Shown here: positions 6 to 43,630 of the stretch, one piece after another
How positions within the stretch are numbered: the stretch's first letter is position 1
Layout of the letters: every line of letters begins with the position of its first letter
Assembly: GCA_002328025.1 (NCBI GenBank)
Contig: DCVE01000014.1
Span: 5,882 to 69,881, forward strand
Length of the DNA: 64,000 nucleotides
DNA from: Patescibacteria group bacterium UBA2196
GTDB taxonomy: Bacteria; Patescibacteriota; Patescibacteriia; UBA2196
Reading direction: 5' to 3'
The notes under the pieces: model-generated
The model's input: the letters and a program-made list of their open reading frames with translations, nothing else
Database searches by the model: none
Told to the model about the DNA's origin: nothing
Program-made: the position numbers and the translations under genes

Positions 6-1793
6 TTGGTTGCCACCAGTCTAAATTTGTCACCAGAGAAAAATGATTTATTGTGCGAGGTACACTTGGGTGAAGCCGAAGGTAAAAGTGGTGGGTGGGT
101 GGAAAAAAATATTGGCTCTTTAAAAAAACGCATAGAAAATGGTTGGCCGCAGGGCGAAACCATGGAACAGTTAAAAACACGTGTTCGTCAATTTGTGGCA
201 GAAATAGAAGAAAAATATGTGGGTAAAAAAATTCTAGTGGTCAGTCATGGAGACACCCTATGTTCTTTAATTAGTTTATTTGACGGTAAAACAGATTTGG
301 AAACCTGGAAAAACAATTATCCTGCCAAAGGTCAGTTAATAGGTTCTTTTGATAAAATGTTTAAAAATAATAATCAGACACACTTTGATCCACACCGTCC
401 GTTTATTGATGAAATTAATTTTCAATGCGAAAAATGTTCTGGCACAATGAAACGCACACCAGAAGTTATGGACTGTTGGTTTGATTCAGGTGCCATGCCT
501 TTGGCACAAACTCATTATCCTTTTGAAAACAAAGATCAGATTGATTCTGGAGCCCAATACCCAGCCAAATATATTTCTGAAGCCATTGATCAGACACGTG
601 GCTGGTTTTATACATTATTAGCCGTGGCTACTTTGTTGGGCAAAGAAGCGCCTTATAAAAATGTTATTTGTTTGGGTCATTTATTGGACAAAAAAGGTCA
701 AAAAATGTCAAAACATATCGGTAATGTTGTTAATCCTTGGGAAATGTTTGAAAAATATGGTGCCGATGTCGTCAGGTGGTATTTATATACAGTCAACCAG
801 CCGGGTGAACCCAAAAGATTTGATGAATCTTTTTTGAAGGAGTCGGCGCGCATGTTTAACACTCTTTTAAACACTTTAACTTTTTATCAAACCTATGTAA
901 ACGAAGTTGCCGCGGTTGAGTTTACAGAATTACAACCCAAAAATATTTTAGACAAATGGATCTCAGCTCAGCTTCATTTATTAATTAAAGAGGTTACTCA
1001 AAGTTTGGAAAATTATGATATTACTACGGCGGCCAGAAAAATTGAAGAATTTATTAATGAATTATCAATTTGGTATGTGCGTCGGTCACGCGATAGGTTT
1101 AAAGGCGATAGCCAAGACGATAAACTGCAAGCTGTTTATGTTTTGGGTAAAGTTTTGTTTGAATTATCAAAATTATTAGCGCCTTTTATTCCGTTTTCAG
1201 CTGAATATATTTATCAAGAATTAAGTAAAAATTGTGGTGCGCTAAAAGAATCAGTACACTTAGAAAACTGGCCAGCCTGTCGCGAAGAAATGATTGATCA
1301 AAAAGTTTTAGAACAGATGCAATCTGTGCGTCAAGTGGTTGAATTAGGTTTAGCCAAACGCGCCGAAGCTGGCATAAAAATTAGGCAACCACTAAAGCGA
1401 CTTTCAACTTTTAATTTTATTTTTTTGAATGAATACGTTGAGTTGATAAAAGATGAGTTAAATGTTAAGAGTGTCAGCGTAGAAAAAGATAATAGTGGGG
1501 AACTAGGGGTAGAACTTGACACTGCTTTGACTGACGAACTCAAAGCCGAGGGTTTGTTACGTGAACTGGTGCGTGGCATTAATAATTTACGCAAGGAAAT
1601 GAAGCTGACCATTCAAGATAGAGTAAAAATTTTATATCACACCGACGATGAAATTTTAAAATCGGTTTTTGTTAAATATGCGGTAGAGTTGCAAAAACAA
1701 ACCTTAGCAGACGATTTAACTTTGTCAGCTGAAGCTGCGGATAAAATAAAAATTAATAATGCCGAAGTTAAAATTAAAATTGTTCAACTTTAA
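6..1793 (+). CDS. ileS: Isoleucyl-tRNA synthetase, C-terminal part (5' partial at window edge); the first ~120 aa resemble the C-terminal half of a histidine phosphatase (PGAM)
   Basis: HRPFID..CEKCSG..VMDCWFDSG, DQTRGWFYT and GQKMSKHIGN (KMSKS) are IleRS hallmarks; upstream VVSHGDTL...is histidine-phosphatase-like; ORF is open to position 6. Confidence 0.8.
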   Translation: MVATSLNLSPEKNDLLCEVHLGEAEGKSGGWVEKNIGSLKKRIENGWPQGETMEQLKTRVRQFVAEIEEKYVGKKILVVSHGDTLCSLISLFDGKTDLETWKNNYPAKGQLIGSFDKMFKNNNQTHFDPHRPFIDEINFQCEKCSGTMKRTPEVMDCWFDSGAMPLAQTHYPFENKDQIDSGAQYPAKYISEAIDQTRGWFYTLLAVATLLGKEAPYKNVICLGHLLDKKGQKMSKHIGNVVNPWEMFEKYGADVVRWYLYTVNQPGEPKRFDESFLKESARMFNTLLNTLTFYQTYVNEVAAVEFTELQPKNILDKWISAQLHLLIKEVTQSLENYDITTAARKIEEFINELSIWYVRRSRDRFKGDSQDDKLQAVYVLGKVLFELSKLLAPFIPFSAEYIYQELSKNCGALKESVHLENWPACREEMIDQKVLEQMQSVRQVVELGLAKRAEAGIKIRQPLKRLSTFNFIFLNEYVELIKDELNVKSVSVEKDNSGELGVELDTALTDELKAEGLLRELVRGINNLRKEMKLTIQDRVKILYHTDDEILKSVFVKYAVELQKQTLADDLTLSAEAADKIKINNAEVKIKIVQL

Positions 1794-12826: not shown

Positions 12827-14290
12827 ATGTTAAATAAATTCTATCTTACCACAACCCTGCCCTATGTCAATGCCGAACCGCACATTGGTTTTGCTTTGGA
12901 AATAATTCAGGCTGATGTTATTGCGCGCTGGCAAAAACTAAATGGCGCTGAAGTTTTTTTTAATACTGGCACAGATGAGCATGGTTTAAAAATTTATCGC
13001 AAAGCTTTAGAGTTGGGTTTAGACCCACAAAAGTATTGTGATGAGTATGCGGCTAAATTTGATAATTTAAAAAGCGCTTTAAATCTAAGTTATAATAATT
13101 TTATTCGCACCACAGACGATCATCACATAAAGGCTGCTCAAGAATTTTGGCAACGTTGTGAAAAAGCTGGTGATATTTACAAAAAAAATTATAGCGTCAA
13201 ATATTGCGTGGGTTGTGAATTGGAAAAAACTGAATCAGAATTAGTTGATAATAAATGTCCGGTCCATCCCAATTTAGAATTAGAATTAATTGCTGAAGAA
13301 AATTATTTTTTCCGTTTTTCCAAATATCAAAAACCACTTTTAGAACTATACGAAAAAAATCCAAACTTTGTTGTGCCCGCGCACAGGTTAAATGAAATTA
13401 AAAATTTTGTGGAGGCTGGTTTAGAAGATTTTAGTATTTCGCGTCTTAAAGAAAAAATGCCTTGGGGCGTAGAAGTGCCCGGTGATGAAACACAAGTTAT
13501 GTATGTTTGGTTTGACGCATTGGTTAATTATATTTCTTGTTTAGGTTGGCCAGAAAATTTAGAAAAATTTAATAATTTTTGGCCGGGTATGCAAGTAGCT
13601 GGTAAAGACAATTTACGTCAGCAAACTGCCATGTGGCAGGCCATGTTGATGTCGGCAGGACTCCCCAATTCTAAACAAATTTTTATTCATGGTTTTATAA
13701 CTTCAGGTGGCGAAAAAATGAGTAAATCTCTTGGCAATGTGGTTAATCCTTTTGAATTGGTAGCTAAATTTGGCACTGATGCCTTGCGTTATTATTTACT
13801 GGCCAAGATTTCTCCAGCTGAAGACGGTGACTATACTGAAGAAAAATTTAAAGAAGCCTATACTGCTGATCTTTGTAATGGCCTTGGTAATTTAGTATCT
13901 AGAGTATCAAACTTGATGGAAAAAAACACCGTTTCTTTGCCATTAGCACACCTCTCTTTGTCATCCCGACGAAAGTCGGGATCCAGTGCTATTAGTGATG
14001 ACAAATTGTCTAAAGAATTTTCCGAAAAACTCTCCCATTATAAATTCAATGAAGCCTTAGAAATTCTTTGGACCAAACTGCGCGCTTGCGATGAAACCAT
14101 TACTAAAACTGAACCATGGAAAATTAAAGATCAAGAAAGGCTAAAAGAAATTTTAGAGCCAGTTGCAGAAGATATTTTAAATGTGGCTATTTTGCTTCAA
14201 CCCTTTATGCCCTCCACGGCTGAAAAAATTATTAAAACATTCACCGCAGAAAAAATTATCAAAGGGGAAATACTTTTCCCCAGAGTATAA
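12827..14290 (+). CDS. metG: Methionyl-tRNA synthetase
   Basis: PYVNAEPHIGF (HIGH variant), GTDEHGLKI, zinc knuckle CVGC..CPVH, GEKMSKSLGN. Confidence 0.9.
   Translation: MLNKFYLTTTLPYVNAEPHIGFALEIIQADVIARWQKLNGAEVFFNTGTDEHGLKIYRKALELGLDPQKYCDEYAAKFDNLKSALNLSYNNFIRTTDDHHIKAAQEFWQRCEKAGDIYKKNYSVKYCVGCELEKTESELVDNKCPVHPNLELELIAEENYFFRFSKYQKPLLELYEKNPNFVVPAHRLNEIKNFVEAGLEDFSISRLKEKMPWGVEVPGDETQVMYVWFDALVNYISCLGWPENLEKFNNFWPGMQVAGKDNLRQQTAMWQAMLMSAGLPNSKQIFIHGFITSGGEKMSKSLGNVVNPFELVAKFGTDALRYYLLAKISPAEDGDYTEEKFKEAYTADLCNGLGNLVSRVSNLMEKNTVSLPLAHLSLSSRRKSGSSAISDDKLSKEFSEKLSHYKFNEALEILWTKLRACDETITKTEPWKIKDQERLKEILEPVAEDILNVAILLQPFMPSTAEKIIKTFTAEKIIKGEILFPRV
13950..13990. repeat. GC-rich palindromic mini-element inserted in-frame in metG (tgtcatcccgac-gaaa-gtcgggat)
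   Basis: perfect 8-bp stem with GAAA loop at 13963-13982; GC-rich island in AT-rich gene; left arm matches the terminal repeat of the 41271-41402 element. Confidence 0.6.
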
Positions 14291-38986: not shown

Positions 38987-41161
<2,175 letters not shown>

Positions 41162-41200
41162 AATAAAATTTTTTAAATAATAAACATTTGACAATAAATT

Positions 41201-41245
41201 GGGGTTTATGTTAATATATGTACATAAGCCCAAAAGGGCTTTTTA
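41201..41245 (+). terminator. gyrB terminator (two hairpins, the second aagccc-aaaa-gggctt + ttttt)
   Basis: inverted repeats read directly; T-run at 41241-41244. Confidence 0.55.
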
Positions 41246-41270
41246 AAATAGAATTATTCAAACTAAATAA

Positions 41271-41402
41271 GGTGTCATTCCGACCGAAGCGATCCGCCAG
41301 TTGGCGGAGAGCGAAGTGGAGGAATCTTTTATACTAATATTAAATTAGTCAAAGAGATCCCTCGACTCCTAACGGCCTTCAAGGCCGCTCGGGATGACAA
41401 GC
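41271..41402. repeat. 130-bp GC-rich structured element with imperfect terminal inverted repeats (tgtcattccgaccg ... cgctcgggatgaca) between gyrB and secE
   Basis: terminal inverted repeats match the metG mini-element arm; internal ccgcca-gt-tggcgg and ggcctt-c-aaggcc hairpins; tandem GA mismatches; AT-rich core. Confidence 0.5.
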
Positions 41403-41409
41403 AATTATT

Positions 41410-41598
41410 ATGCCTAATAAACTAATCCAATACCTCAAGGACTCTAAAGTGGAACTAAAAAAAGTCGTTTGGCCCACCAAAAAACAGGTCTTAAATCACA
41501 CTTTGTTAGTGATTGGTTTTTCTTTGAGTGCGGCTATTTTTTTAGGCGCAATTGACCTTGGTCTTATTAAGTTGGTGGAAAAAATTATCGCTTGGTAA
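41410..41598 (+). CDS. secE: Preprotein translocase subunit SecE
   Basis: 62 aa, KVVWPTKKQVLNHTLLVIGF single TM. Confidence 0.8.
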   Translation: MPNKLIQYLKDSKVELKKVVWPTKKQVLNHTLLVIGFSLSAAIFLGAIDLGLIKLVEKIIAW

Positions 41599-41617: not shown

Positions 41618-42163
41618 ATGCCCAGACAAAATGAAAATCAAGGCCGGCGTTGGTATGCCATTCATACCTATTCGGGGTATGAGGAAAGCGTGGCCCATAA
41701 TTTAAAACAAAGAATCGATTCTTTGGACATGCAAGATAAAATTTATCAGGTTTTGGTGCCCAAAGAAAAGAAGATAAAAATTAAAAATGGCAAACGTTCA
41801 ACAATTGAAGAAAAAATTTATCCAGGTTATGTGTTGGTAGAAATGTCAGTCACCGACGCCTCGTGGTACGTGGTCCGCAACACTCCCAATGTCACTGGCT
41901 TTATTGGTACCGGCACCACCCCAACCCCCATGTCAGATAAAGAAGTGGAAGAACTGCAGAAACGCATGGGTGTGGAAGAGCCAAAATATAAAATTGATAT
42001 CAGTGTTGGTTCGGCCGTGCGTATGGTGGATGGTCCGTTTAAAGAAATGGAAGGTAAAATTTCTGAAATTGATGAAGGCCGTGGTCGGGTCAAGGTTTTG
42101 GTTTCTATGTTTGGCCGCGAAACACCAGTTGATCTGGATTTTTTACAGATTAAAAAGATTTAA
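41618..42163 (+). CDS. nusG: Transcription termination/antitermination factor NusG
   Basis: RWYAIHTYSGYEESV, KOW region GSAVRMVDGPFKEMEGKI. Confidence 0.9.
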   Translation: MPRQNENQGRRWYAIHTYSGYEESVAHNLKQRIDSLDMQDKIYQVLVPKEKKIKIKNGKRSTIEEKIYPGYVLVEMSVTDASWYVVRNTPNVTGFIGTGTTPTPMSDKEVEELQKRMGVEEPKYKIDISVGSAVRMVDGPFKEMEGKISEIDEGRGRVKVLVSMFGRETPVDLDFLQIKKI

Positions 42164-42703: not shown

Positions 42704-43630
42704 ATGAAAAAAATAACTAAGCAGCCAAAAACATTAGTGATGGTTTTGATTATGGCCATTGCACTGGCTTTATTAGTTTTTGATATAGTTTGGATTTATA
42801 CCCAGGTGAAAAAAGCATATTTGACACAGGGTTCAGGAGTGGAACTTAATAATGTTGAGCTTAATAGCACTGAGAAAGTTAGCAATGATAAAAACGATAA
42901 ACAGAGTTTTACCTTACGTGGTTTTTTTATTAATAAAGATGTTTCTGCGTGCGGGTACTATAGTGATGGAAAAAATATTTTTTTTGAAGATAATATAATA
43001 GAAAACGCAGATTTGGAAACTTTTGATATAGTTGGACTAACCAATGATTCTTATCTAAGTTGTTTTAAAGAGGAATACACGAGAGATAAAAATTTTGTTT
43101 ATTCGTTTGGAAGAAAAATTGAAGGTGCTGATCAAAATACATTCGAATTGCTGAATCGTGTCTATGCTAAGGATAAAAATTTTGTTTATTCGTTTGGAAG
43201 AAAAATTGACGGAGCCGATTCTGATACGTTTAAAGTGTTGGGTGATTATTATGCTAAAGATAAAAACAGTGCTTATTGTGATCGGAAGAAAATGGATCCC
43301 AGTGTAGATATTAATTCTTTCCAGTCTTTAGATTATAATTATGCAAAAGATAAAAACAGTGTTTATAAACATGGTTTAAAAATTGATAGGGATGTAGATT
43401 CATTCATAATTATCAATAGTATGTATTCTAAGGACAATCTTGGGGTTTATTTTGAAGCAGATTTTGTGCCATTAGAAAAAATTGAAGGAGCTGATCCACA
43501 CACATTCGAAGTTGTCTATCAAAAAAATTCTAATGGCTACATTATAAATGAATATGCAAAAGATAAAAACAATGTTTATAGAGATGGTCAATTAATTGAA
43601 GGCGCAGATCCAAAGACATACAAACCGTAA
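42704..43630 (+). CDS. membrane-anchored DKNYY-repeat protein (six Y(A/T)KDKNxVY repeats)
   Basis: N-terminal TM; repeats YTRDKNFVY, YAKDKNFVY, YAKDKNSAY, YAKDKNSVY, YSKDNLGVY, YAKDKNNVY, each followed by GAD..TF. Confidence 0.6.
   Translation: MKKITKQPKTLVMVLIMAIALALLVFDIVWIYTQVKKAYLTQGSGVELNNVELNSTEKVSNDKNDKQSFTLRGFFINKDVSACGYYSDGKNIFFEDNIIENADLETFDIVGLTNDSYLSCFKEEYTRDKNFVYSFGRKIEGADQNTFELLNRVYAKDKNFVYSFGRKIDGADSDTFKVLGDYYAKDKNSAYCDRKKMDPSVDINSFQSLDYNYAKDKNSVYKHGLKIDRDVDSFIIINSMYSKDNLGVYFEADFVPLEKIEGADPHTFEVVYQKNSNGYIINEYAKDKNNVYRDGQLIEGADPKTYKP

Follow-up and report, generated by a model that had tools for sequence, protein, structure and literature searches.

A head-to-head palindromic DNA repeat in the secE leader of a Patescibacteria genome, probably of the CGTC-tagged REP / Ssn-related-motif kind

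The secE-nusG leader

The 64-kb stretch of DNA analysed here (64,000 nucleotides, hereafter the window) carries a GC-rich island between gyrB and secE, which the first-pass annotation had described as a structured element at 41271-41402. The element is real, and its exact limits are 41273-41399, a length of 127 bp (Table 1). Upstream of it lies a sigma-70-like site that is likely the promoter of secE-nusG, which would place the element in the 5' UTR of these genes. A leader hairpin starts 8 nt 3' of this promoter. It had been taken for a clean terminator of gyrB, a reading that cannot be upheld given its position just past the promoter and the fact that promoter and hairpin accompany secE in 65 of 79 related loci, irrespective of the gene upstream. 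The combination of promoter, hairpin and TTTAAAA is found only once in the window, at the secE leader.

The region upstream of secE lacks the element in all 80 nusG-linked related loci, and in one of them (L006), which displays the same gyrB-promoter-hairpin-secE synteny, the site is empty and reads TTTTTAAAATAGCATT-ATG. The element is therefore an insertion in this lineage, and it would have entered the untranslated leader of secE-nusG at a point past the conserved leader hairpin and ahead of the secE start codon.

Table 1. Features of the secE leader and of the metG copy, in positions of the window
Feature	Position	Strand	Remarks
metG copy	13959..14003	+	in-frame copy within metG, the other family member in the window; single unit plus remnant of a second unit; TGTC tag 13959-13962
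Promoter TTGACA-18-TAATAT	41188..41217	+	sigma-70-like; 10/12 matches, TG before -10; likely secE-nusG promoter
Leader hairpin AAGCCC-AAAA-GGGCTT (41226-41241), then TTTTTAAA	41226..41249	+	conserved, promoter-proximal
Whole element	41273..41399	.	HH dimer of two TGTC-tagged hairpin units; pattern match and both conserved inner arms
Left unit	41273..41326	+	TGTC tag 41273-41276; stem ATTCC/GGAAT; tandem G.A/A.G; covarying C:G pair
Nested GC hairpin of left unit, TCCGCC-AGTT-GGCGGA	41293..41308	+	predicted fold
Inner arm of left unit, GTGGAGGAATC	41316-41326	+	C immediately 3' of the palindrome
AT-rich spacer	41327..41355	.	29 nt; ends complementary; tip of the central hairpin in the predicted fold
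Right unit, TGTC-ATCCC-GA-GC...GTCGAGGGATC	41356..41399	-	forward on the - strand; TGTC tag 41399-41396 (-)
Nested GC hairpin of right unit, GGCCTTCAAGGCC	41374..41386	.	predicted fold
secE	41410..41598	+	downstream gene; start region unpaired in the predicted 5' UTR fold

Anatomy and folding of the element

The element is a quasi-palindrome, in which two TGTC-tagged hairpin units stand head-to-head (HH, with the tags outward) on either side of the AT-rich spacer, and it fits the pattern TGTCATYCCGASC-N75-105-GSTCGGRATGACA. Its outer arms, TGTCATTCCGACCG and CGCTCGGGATGACA, are complementary at 12 of 14 positions, with one T.G wobble and one C.C mismatch; the imperfect terminal inverted repeat of about 13 bp that had been noticed earlier is thus confirmed. 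The 13-mer GTCATYCCGASCG is present in exact copies at 41274 (+) and 41398 (-), and the sequence common to both inverted units is TGTCATYCCGA-S-C ... S'-GAGGRATC. Each unit has a 5-bp stem beginning with AT, followed by the tandem G.A/A.G mismatches and one to two more pairs; the loops measure 20-30 nt and enclose a nested hairpin, and the tails are CTT and CTC. Both of the GC hairpins proposed at first pass exist, with loops of 4 nt and 3-5 nt instead of 2 and 1. The suggestion that the AT-rich core might carry the -10 box of secE found no support: a promoter scan revealed no promoter-like site in the spacer. A 7-bp direct repeat, AATTATT, flanks the insertion and could easily have arisen by chance in AT-rich DNA.

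Folded as RNA, the + strand of the element reaches -62.7 kcal/mol (z = -7.1) and the - strand -60.8 kcal/mol (z = -7.3), and in neither case was any of 200 shuffles as stable; for the same fold in single-stranded DNA z is -4.9. The predicted structure is a four-way junction in which two side hairpins and a long central one branch off a closing stem. The left unit on its own folds with -23.5 kcal/mol (z = -3.5). Tandem G.A mismatches, reported before for the element as a whole, are present and are a conserved feature of the family, but they form when each half is folded separately.

The copy in metG

If up to two mismatches are allowed, GTCATYCCGASCG also matches at 13960, inside metG, so that the window contains four matches versus 0.99 expected, a number reached by none of 100 shuffles. 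This bears out the postulated kinship with a mini-element in metG, but not the accompanying idea that the secE element is the full-length form and the metG copy an internally deleted version of it. The metG copy consists of TGTC-ATCCCGAC-GAAA-GTCGGGAT-CCA, followed by the remnant ..GATGACA of a second unit; its one complete unit is canonical, with a TGTC tag, an 8-bp stem, a GAAA loop and a CCA tail. The 127-bp element is a dimer whose two units are more elaborate, and the family's genuine long form is a cassette with a GIY-YIG gene placed between two units. In alignment with the 13 closest MetG homologues, the copy appears as an insertion of 13 amino acids against nine of them. Alignment with the MetRS structures in the PDB was too uncertain to call this insertion, and the closer homologues settled the question. 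The density of copies in the window is apparently low, with two sites in 64 kb.

A dispersed family with REP-like behaviour

The assignment to a dispersed family of palindromic repeats holds well beyond the window. Close relatives carry related copies at other sites (a truncated one of the same subtype in L005, four copies in L004 and three in L047), the unit is present in 87 viral-contig stretches, and the full dimer pattern occurs in at least 120 genome stretches from more than 12 phyla, at unrelated sites. Among the dimer matches listed are Acidobacteriota, Verrucomicrobiota, Gemmatimonadota, Patescibacteria, Omnitrophota, Planctomycetota, Proteobacteria, Firmicutes, Actinobacteria, Chloroflexota, Bacteroidota and Armatimonadota. 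Dimers retrieved by their outer arms alone possess both inner arms in 98 of 130 cases, compared to 0 of 2600 shuffles, which demonstrates that the homology extends beyond the search pattern. GAGGRAYC is likewise kept in 98 of the 130 dimers, whose spacers range from 5 to 78 nt (median 48), and the nested hairpins differ in sequence among family members.

The unit hairpin is under constraint, and its stem pairs covary: the S:S' pair across the tandem G.A is G-C in 114 units, C-G in 67 and non-Watson-Crick in 12, and the Y:R pair of the stem is C-G in 100 and T-A in 80. Crude ORF calling places 82 of 127 copies between genes, and where a called gene lies on each side the flanking genes are co-directional in 48 cases, convergent in 19 and divergent in 6; copies lie mostly at the 3' ends of genes, and some are inside ORFs. 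No excess of direct flanking repeats, as expected from target-site duplication, was found at any single length in 131 copies. Dispersion, absence of a target-site duplication, gene context and the in-frame copy in metG together amount to REP-like behaviour.

The closest described repeats are those of the CGTC-tagged REP superfamily, which comprises dRS3 of Neisseria and RPE-4 and RPE-6 of Rickettsia (Di Nocera, De Gregorio & Rocco 2013, BMC Genomics 14:522). These repeats have a CGTC or TGTC tag and stems that start with AT, form mostly HH dimers with spacers of 20-100 bp, and include intragenic copies (PMC3733652). Our family agrees with them in the unpaired tag at one end, in the A-T, T-A start of the stem, in the prevalence of HH dimers, with a spacer (29 nt in the secE leader) within the published range and in some cases with complementary ends, in the high similarity across distant taxa and, at the level of the family, in the dispersion between co-directional or convergent genes with in-frame intragenic copies. 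The published definition requires a stem of 8-9 bp beginning A-T, T-A, a loop of 4-5 nt and a 3-nt tail near CCA (PMC3733652). Family CGTC-1, with its 8-bp stem, 4-nt loop and CCA tail, is matched exactly by the metG copy, whereas both units of the 127-bp element depart from these dimensions with their shorter G.A-extended stems, long loops and CTT/CTC tails. CGTC-tagged REPs have been published from five phyla, which do not include Patescibacteria or most of the other phyla recorded here. A literature search with the arm sequences as text found no related paper.

Association with GIY-YIG nuclease genes

A second body of work concerns the NTS and Ssn-related motifs (SRM), which are cut as single-stranded DNA by the small GIY-YIG nuclease SsnA, with RNA and double-stranded DNA not being substrates (Chenal et al. 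2025, Nat Commun 16:2388; PMC11893778). Critical for SsnA are a GTC upstream of the palindrome and a C after it (PMC11893778), and both are directly adjacent to the palindrome in the two units of the secE leader as well as in the metG copy. The published degenerate pattern HGTCWY-N0-2-YYVSBRH-N0-5-WNVSBRG-N0-2-RNCYNB, which does match NTS, matches neither the window units nor the metG copy nor any of 260 dimer units, and the stem here reads CCGAS, not CCCGCG.

In one dimer locus (L197) the distance between the dimer and a GIY-YIG gene (PF01541) is 47 bp. TGTC/CGTC-tagged hairpins of the family also flank, within about 300 bp, each of six homologues of this gene in other lineages, so that the repeat type flanks the gene in all seven GIY-YIG loci inspected, several times with the tags outward or in arrays. 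This parallels NTS/SRM, where hairpin repeats also stand on both sides of a small single-domain GIY-YIG gene. In the protein P0241, residues Y7, Y17 and E64 match the mutated residues Y6, Y17 and E64 of SsnA. No NCBIfam model was found for the repeat-flanked GIY-YIG proteins.

A GIY-YIG gene lies within 8 kb in only 2 of 120 dimer loci, a frequency that matches the expectation from one gene per genome, yet is no evidence in itself. A profile search with 121 sequences detected no GIY-YIG gene in the window, and about 0.5 Mb of related Patescibacteria DNA yielded only one small GIY-YIG gene (L058), which is devoid of such flanking repeats. Clustering of the ORFs around the 120 dimer loci recovered generic families alone (ABC ATPases, ECF sigma factors, AMP-binding enzymes and SDRs) and no recurrent transposase family; its cut-off (90 aa, 60-residue alignment) missed the small GIY-YIG genes.

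Nature of the element

In our view the element is probably a palindromic repeat of non-coding DNA, an HH dimer of the pan-bacterial CGTC-tagged REP / Ssn-related-motif kind, which came to lie in the secE leader by a lineage-specific insertion. Its biologically relevant form would be a hairpin of single-stranded DNA. Each strand offers one forward unit at its 5' side, with the GTC tag, the AT-initiated stem and the C right after the stem, an arrangement that would be bound, and cut just upstream, by Ssn-type nucleases, small proteins with a single GIY-YIG domain. Dimers without a gene resemble miniature derivatives of the unit-GIY-YIG gene-unit cassettes and may relate to them as REPINs do to RAYT genes. 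That a cognate nuclease is present and acting in this organism we infer, as we do the manner in which copies spread. The copy in the secE leader is probably a tolerated passenger: it is predicted to add a self-contained structure of about 150 nt to the leader of the secE mRNA, in which the start-codon region stays unpaired.

The comparison with REPINs and RAYTs (Bertels & Rainey 2011), and with the BIMEs of E. coli, rests on two inverted REP hairpins that are separated by a spacer and can fold into one long hairpin. REPINs are gene-less, non-autonomous derivatives that presumably rely on an enzyme gene present in single copy and flanked by the repeat, and the present dimer is similar in this respect. 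The two systems differ in their tag and enzyme, GTAG with a Y1 HUH transposase there and TGTC with an associated GIY-YIG nuclease gene here. A selfish repeat of the same kind might also be mobilised by another enzyme, in trans by a RAYT or IS200-IS605 Y1 transposase as in a REPIN or by a DDE transposase as in a MITE, or it might be a target or product of recombinases of the IS110 type. We regard this as unlikely. The layout is exactly that of a REPIN (PMC3116915, PMC3337134), the missing target-site duplication would suit Y1 transposition, and the 13-nt terminal inverted repeats of the window element, together with its small size and the dispersed copies, recall IS-derived MITEs. However, RAYTs go with GTAG and not with TGTC, no RAYT or other transposase has been found flanked by CGTC repeats (PMC3733652), the unbiased ORF clustering returned only generic families, and the repeat flanks the gene in all seven GIY-YIG loci inspected. 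A MITE of the DDE type is further contradicted by the lack of a target duplication of fixed length and of a transposase-bearing parent element.

A functional structured RNA that acts via the four-way junction, be it a small RNA or a cis-regulatory leader at the 5' end of secE-nusG, is very improbable in our judgement, although the first-pass annotation had offered an unclassified structured RNA as one of its two readings. The very stable fold (z = -7.1) and the strong promoter upstream, which makes transcription very likely, speak for such an RNA. Moreover, the T/C difference between the outer arms yields a U.G wobble on the sense strand and a C.A mismatch on the antisense strand, and the sense strand folds slightly better, by the energies given above. 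Yet the antisense strand is nearly as stable, and the element is missing from the same leader in 80 of 80 relatives, one of them with identical synteny. The family resides at unrelated loci and in ORFs of more than 12 phyla, and it bears no sign of strand-specific selection at the RNA level: heterodimers are oriented without bias relative to the flanking genes (11 same, 7 opposite), and in the unit stems C.A mismatches (10) exceed T.G mismatches (3), the reverse of a G.U bias. Rfam gave no match at gathering score in the whole window and only noise at E <= 10 in the region 41100-41500. Finally, among characterised repeats the closest are recognised by SsnA, whose substrate is single-stranded DNA and not RNA (PMC11893778).

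Alternatively, the host might have co-opted the repeat, e.g. as a stabiliser of the mRNA, as a processing site or as a buffer between the terminator-like hairpin and the secE coding region, a possibility to which we give hardly any weight. Most REPs lie 3' of genes, and in some species they are believed to function as RNA elements (PMC3733652). The interval from the leader hairpin to the secE ATG is expanded to more than 50 nt in about one third of the related loci, several of the expanded intervals hold other GC-rich palindromes, including a TGTC-tagged hairpin in L019, and the predicted fold leaves the AUG region free. However, the sequences inserted in this interval are mutually unrelated and most relatives are without any, so that a permissive landing site suits these unrelated insertions better than a selected function does.

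A tRNA-Trp gene precedes secE in many bacteria, and both the position of the element and its cloverleaf-like four-way junction could suggest a degenerate remnant of such a gene, but this origin is effectively refuted: ARAGORN, in agreement with the earlier failure to fold the element as a tRNA, found no tRNA in the window and no tRNA-Trp upstream of secE in 80 related loci (1.2 kb upstream of nusG), Rfam gave no tRNA match even at E <= 10, and the arms belong to a repeat family present at hundreds of unrelated sites.

Implications

For annotation, recognising the GC-rich island upstream of secE as a repeat insertion and not as a new RNA gene removes a false lead. On a wider scale, the CGTC-REP / Ssn-related-motif family reaches into Patescibacteria and many other phyla, and the published SRM pattern overlooks the form with tandem G.A mismatches and nested hairpins; current counts of Ssn motifs are thus probably too low. 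The observations also join two literatures: CGTC REPs were reported in 2013 to have no dedicated enzyme, and the same repeat type flanks small GIY-YIG genes in the seven loci inspected here.

Patescibacteria are thought to depend on DNA uptake. A tentative extension of our reading, which we hold to be rather doubtful, is that the long-loop TGTC subfamily with tandem G.A mismatches represents a separate specificity class of Ssn-type nucleases in more than 12 phyla, that Patescibacteria may carry the cognate nuclease, and that the secE dimer is a miniature of a unit-ssn-unit cassette. If true, elements like this dimer would flag DNA for single-strand cleavage when it is taken up or replicated. 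In Neisseria, the role shown for NTS/SRM is the restriction of transformation. The regulatory feature of greater interest at the locus itself may be the conserved hairpin next to the promoter in the secE-nusG leader.

Anatomy of the element upstream of secE

The GC-rich inverted-repeat element that the first-pass annotation placed between gyrB and secE, at 41271-41402, is real, and its limits can be refined to exactly 127 bp (see the table). Its outer arms are complementary at 12 of 14 positions. The arm consensus GTCATYCCGASCG has two exact matches in the window, one per element end, and a close copy at 13960, in metG; when up to two mismatches are allowed there are four matches against 0.99 expected, a number that none of the shuffles reached. 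In the predicted fold the two outer arms form the closing stem, each half holds a GC hairpin (41293-41308 and 41374-41386), and a long central hairpin carries the AT-rich core at its tip. Folding of both strands as RNA, a check proposed earlier, gave stable structures for the + strand (-62.7 kcal/mol, z = -7.1) and the - strand (-60.8 kcal/mol, z = -7.3); the same structure as single-stranded DNA has z = -4.9.

One unit occurs in both halves, in inverted orientation; the two copies form a tag-outward (head-to-head, HH) dimer and are separated by an AT-rich spacer of 29 nt with complementary ends. Each unit can be folded alone into a 5-bp AT-initiated stem, a tandem G.A/A.G, one or two further pairs and a variable nested hairpin. 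The tandem G.A mismatches noticed at first reading are therefore real and belong to the fold of the unit.

Features of the element, its locus and related loci (positions in the window unless a locus from another genome, L, is named)
Feature	Position	Strand	Description
Gene order	gyrB 39008-41161, secE 41410-41598, nusG 41618-42163		pheT, gyrB, secE, nusG, rplK, DKNYY-repeat gene, rplA
Element	41273-41399		127 bp, HH dimer upstream of secE
Left unit		+	TGTC-ATTCC-GA-CC ... G-T-G-GA-GGAAT-C
Right unit		- (as read)	TGTC-ATCCC-GA-GC ... G-T-C-GA-GGGAT-C
metG copy	13959-14003, in metG 12827-14290		canonical TGTC-tagged REP unit and remnant of a second unit
secE-nusG leader module	41188-41249; also upstream of secE in L004-L083		TTGACA-16..19-TAnnnT promoter, GC hairpin, UUUAAAA
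Direct repeat	41252-41258 and 41403-41409		AATTATT, 7 bp; brackets the ~150-bp segment missing from L006
DKNYY-repeat protein gene	42704-43630		PF13644, 308 aa, with 87-90 bp tandem repeats
Single unit in a close relative	L004 ~1350-1398	-	TGTC-tagged, GTCATCCTGACGAAAGTCAGGATC, between secE stop and nusG start
Dimer on a Candidatus Nanoarchaeia contig	L264 1051-1160		full dimer of the family
GIY-YIG gene in a Patescibacteria relative	L058 3336-3573		71 aa, single-domain (PF01541), between nusG and rplK
ORF in a Fimbriimonas MAG	L216 3315-3695		overlaps a dimer; 27.7 bits against the GIY-YIG profile

A dispersed family of palindromic repeats

Several lines of evidence place the element in a dispersed palindromic repeat family, as had been proposed, together with the copy in metG. 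The full dimer pattern (TGTCATYCCGASC-N75-105-GSTCGGRATGACA), for which we estimate about 0.1 chance matches, had at least 120 matching stretches in DNA sampled at one genome per species; the matches listed include Acidobacteriota, Verrucomicrobiota, Gemmatimonadota, Omnitrophota, Planctomycetota, Proteobacteria, Firmicutes, Actinobacteria, Chloroflexota, Bacteroidota, Armatimonadota and six named lineages of Patescibacteria, and among them several MAGs were matched on three or four contigs. Both inner arms (GAGGRAYC) are present in 98 of the 130 dimers retrieved via their outer arms only, and in none of 2600 shuffled interiors. Covariation is evident among 193 distinct units: the pair bracketing the tandem G.A is G-C in 114, C-G in 67 and another combination in 12, and the Y:R pair of the basal stem is C-G in 100 and T-A in 80. 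The unit pattern was also matched in 87 viral-contig stretches, frequently with several matches on one contig. Close relatives carry the same tag and stem at other sites, with a copy of the element's own subtype in L005 (GTCATTCCGACCGAAG...GTGGAGGAATCT...AGATCCCTCGAC), three copies in L047 and four in L004, one of them between secE and nusG. With units of 53 and 43 nt and its 29-nt spacer, the window copy lies within the ranges of the family (units 24-68 nt, median 32; spacers 5-78 nt, median 48).

No target-site duplication of any fixed length was found around family copies. Crude gene calls put 82 of 127 copies between genes, and where a gene was called on each side the flanking genes are co-directional in 48 cases, convergent in 19 and divergent in 6. 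The dimer on the contig labelled Candidatus Nanoarchaeia reflects either faulty binning or a family that occurs across domains.

The window holds two family sites only. The second, TGTC-ATCCCGAC-GAAA-GTCGGGAT-CCA, is inserted in frame in metG, where it encodes ..LSLSSRRKSGSSA... Compared with 9 of the 13 closest MetG homologues, the copy appears as an insertion of 13 aa, placed in a variable loop of the anticodon-binding domain. It had been regarded as an internally deleted version of a full-length element, a view that a canonical single unit followed by the remnant of another does not bear out.

The other reading offered at first, an unclassified structured RNA, has to be given up: the strands fold about equally well, heterodimers show no orientation bias relative to flanking genes (11 same, 7 opposite), unit-stem mismatches are more often C.A (10) than T.G (3), and some family copies lie inside ORFs. 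Strand folding, dimer orientation and mismatch types give no pointer to a strand-specific RNA function. The suggested comparison with Rfam and tRNA models yielded no family at gathering score and no tRNA gene (ARAGORN) anywhere in the 64-kb window; around the element, Rfam returned only noise at E <= 10.

Relation to CGTC-tagged REPs and GIY-YIG nucleases

The CGTC-tagged REP superfamily, defined by Di Nocera et al. 2013 (PMC3733652) and including Neisseria dRS3 and Rickettsia RPE-4/6, has a tag that is often TGTC, stems of 8-9 bp starting AT, loops of 4-5 nt and a tail close to CCA. The majority are HH dimers with spacers of 20-100 bp, chiefly between co-directional or convergent genes, with some in-frame intragenic copies; that study found no associated transposase. 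The metG copy is an exact fit. In tag, AT start, HH arrangement and context the large units of the 127-bp element agree with the superfamily, but their stems are interrupted and their loops far larger. The kind of repeat is known; the element adds to it a new member, in an elaborated form and from a poorly sampled phylum.

dRS3 is part of the 28-nt element NTS (CGTCATTCCCGCGMAVGCGGGAATCYRG); the small single-domain GIY-YIG nuclease SsnA binds and cleaves NTS (Chenal et al. 2025, PMC11893778). Cutting takes place in single-stranded DNA only, on one strand only, just upstream of NTS; cleavage depends most on the three bases preceding the palindrome and binding most on the C directly following it, and "Ssn-related motifs" typically flank ssn genes throughout the bacteria (PMC11893778). 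The units of the element's family have precisely GTC and the 3' C as their invariant flanks; the published degenerate pattern of Ssn-related motifs, however, matches none of these units.

The molecular partner of the repeat is most likely an Ssn-type GIY-YIG single-strand DNA nuclease, a link that is supported for the subfamily and comes from other genomes. In Abditibacterium (L197) a 119-aa GIY-YIG gene (PF01541) lies 47 bp from a dimer. Homologues of its product were retrieved and six loci from other lineages fetched; each of the six genes has flanking TGTC/CGTC-tagged hairpins of the element's family no more than ~300 bp away, for example TGTCATTCCGAGGGAAGCGAAGCGACGAGGAATCTTT in L294, CGTCATTTCGAGCTTGTCGAGAAATCAGG on both sides of the gene in L296, and four dimers in a row in L298. 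The tags often point away from the gene, and therefore a gene-less HH dimer shares its end layout with such a cassette minus the gene. One of these proteins (P0241) has Y7, Y17 and E64; the residues mutated in SsnA in PMC11893778 are the closely matching Y6, Y17 and E64. Clustering of all larger ORFs around 120 dimer loci revealed no recurrent transposase.

A profile of 121 of the GIY-YIG proteins found no such gene in the window, and over ~0.5 Mb of related Patescibacteria DNA one small homologue only, in L058. A perfect 12-bp inverted repeat (ACCCCGCCCTCT / AGAGGGCGGGGT), rather than TGTC-tagged units, brackets this gene, which looks like a small mobile cassette inside the conserved operon. 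The Fimbriimonas ORF may be a degraded ssn-like gene beside the repeat.

Insertion into the secE-nusG leader

The window belongs to a Patescibacteria (CPR) genome. NCBI MAGs contain an annotated protein identical to its NusG, the closest named relatives being "Patescibacteria group bacterium", Falkowbacteria and similar, and the secE gene with its intergenic region shows zero differences across three independent assemblies. The DKNYY-repeat gene is inserted between rplK and rplA, which are normally adjacent.

Among 80 loci encoding NusG relatives (L004-L083), neither the element nor a tRNA-Trp lies upstream of secE in any. In L006, which shares the gyrB-secE synteny, the upstream hairpin runs directly into the start codon (TTTTTAAAATAGCATT-ATG), and the window has at the matching site TTTTTAAAATAG-AATTATT-(CAAACTAAATAAGG + 127-bp element + AGC)-AATTATT-ATG. 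The absence from all 80 leaders and the empty site in L006 argue that the element is a lineage-specific insertion, a segment of ~150 bp. The AATTATT direct repeat may have arisen by duplication during insertion, or simply by chance in AT-rich DNA.

The hairpin upstream of the element (41226-41241, followed by TTTTTAAAA) had been taken for the gyrB terminator. It lies 8 nt downstream of a TTGACA-18-TAATAT promoter, and a promoter, a GC hairpin beginning 5-19 nt past the -10 and UUUAAAA are kept upstream of secE at 65 of 79 related loci, whatever the upstream gene, which argues against a terminator of gyrB. The hairpin occurs in 68 of 79 Patescibacteria loci, 65 of which also have the promoter, and its stems vary by locus (GCCC/GGGC, CCCCC/GGGGG, GGCC/GGCC, CGCC/GGCG). 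The module occurs nowhere else in the window and has no Rfam match. Its role could be 5' stabilisation or weak termination close to the promoter; autoregulation assisted by NusG is speculation.

Since promoter and hairpin belong to the secE leader, the element lies within the 5' UTR of secE-nusG. Fold prediction for the complete leader has it folding independently, with the start-codon region unpaired in the centroid; a tolerated passenger would fit. The distance from leader hairpin to secE ATG is usually 10-30 nt and is expanded in about one third of the loci, reaching 100-200 nt in L019, L008, L017, L024, L014, L082, L051 and L047. GC-rich palindromes, mutually unrelated, occur in the expanded interval of at least five loci (L008, L017, L019, L024, L082), and that of L019 holds a TGTC-tagged hairpin of a different kind; the stretch from leader hairpin to ATG thus resembles a permissive, recurrent landing site.
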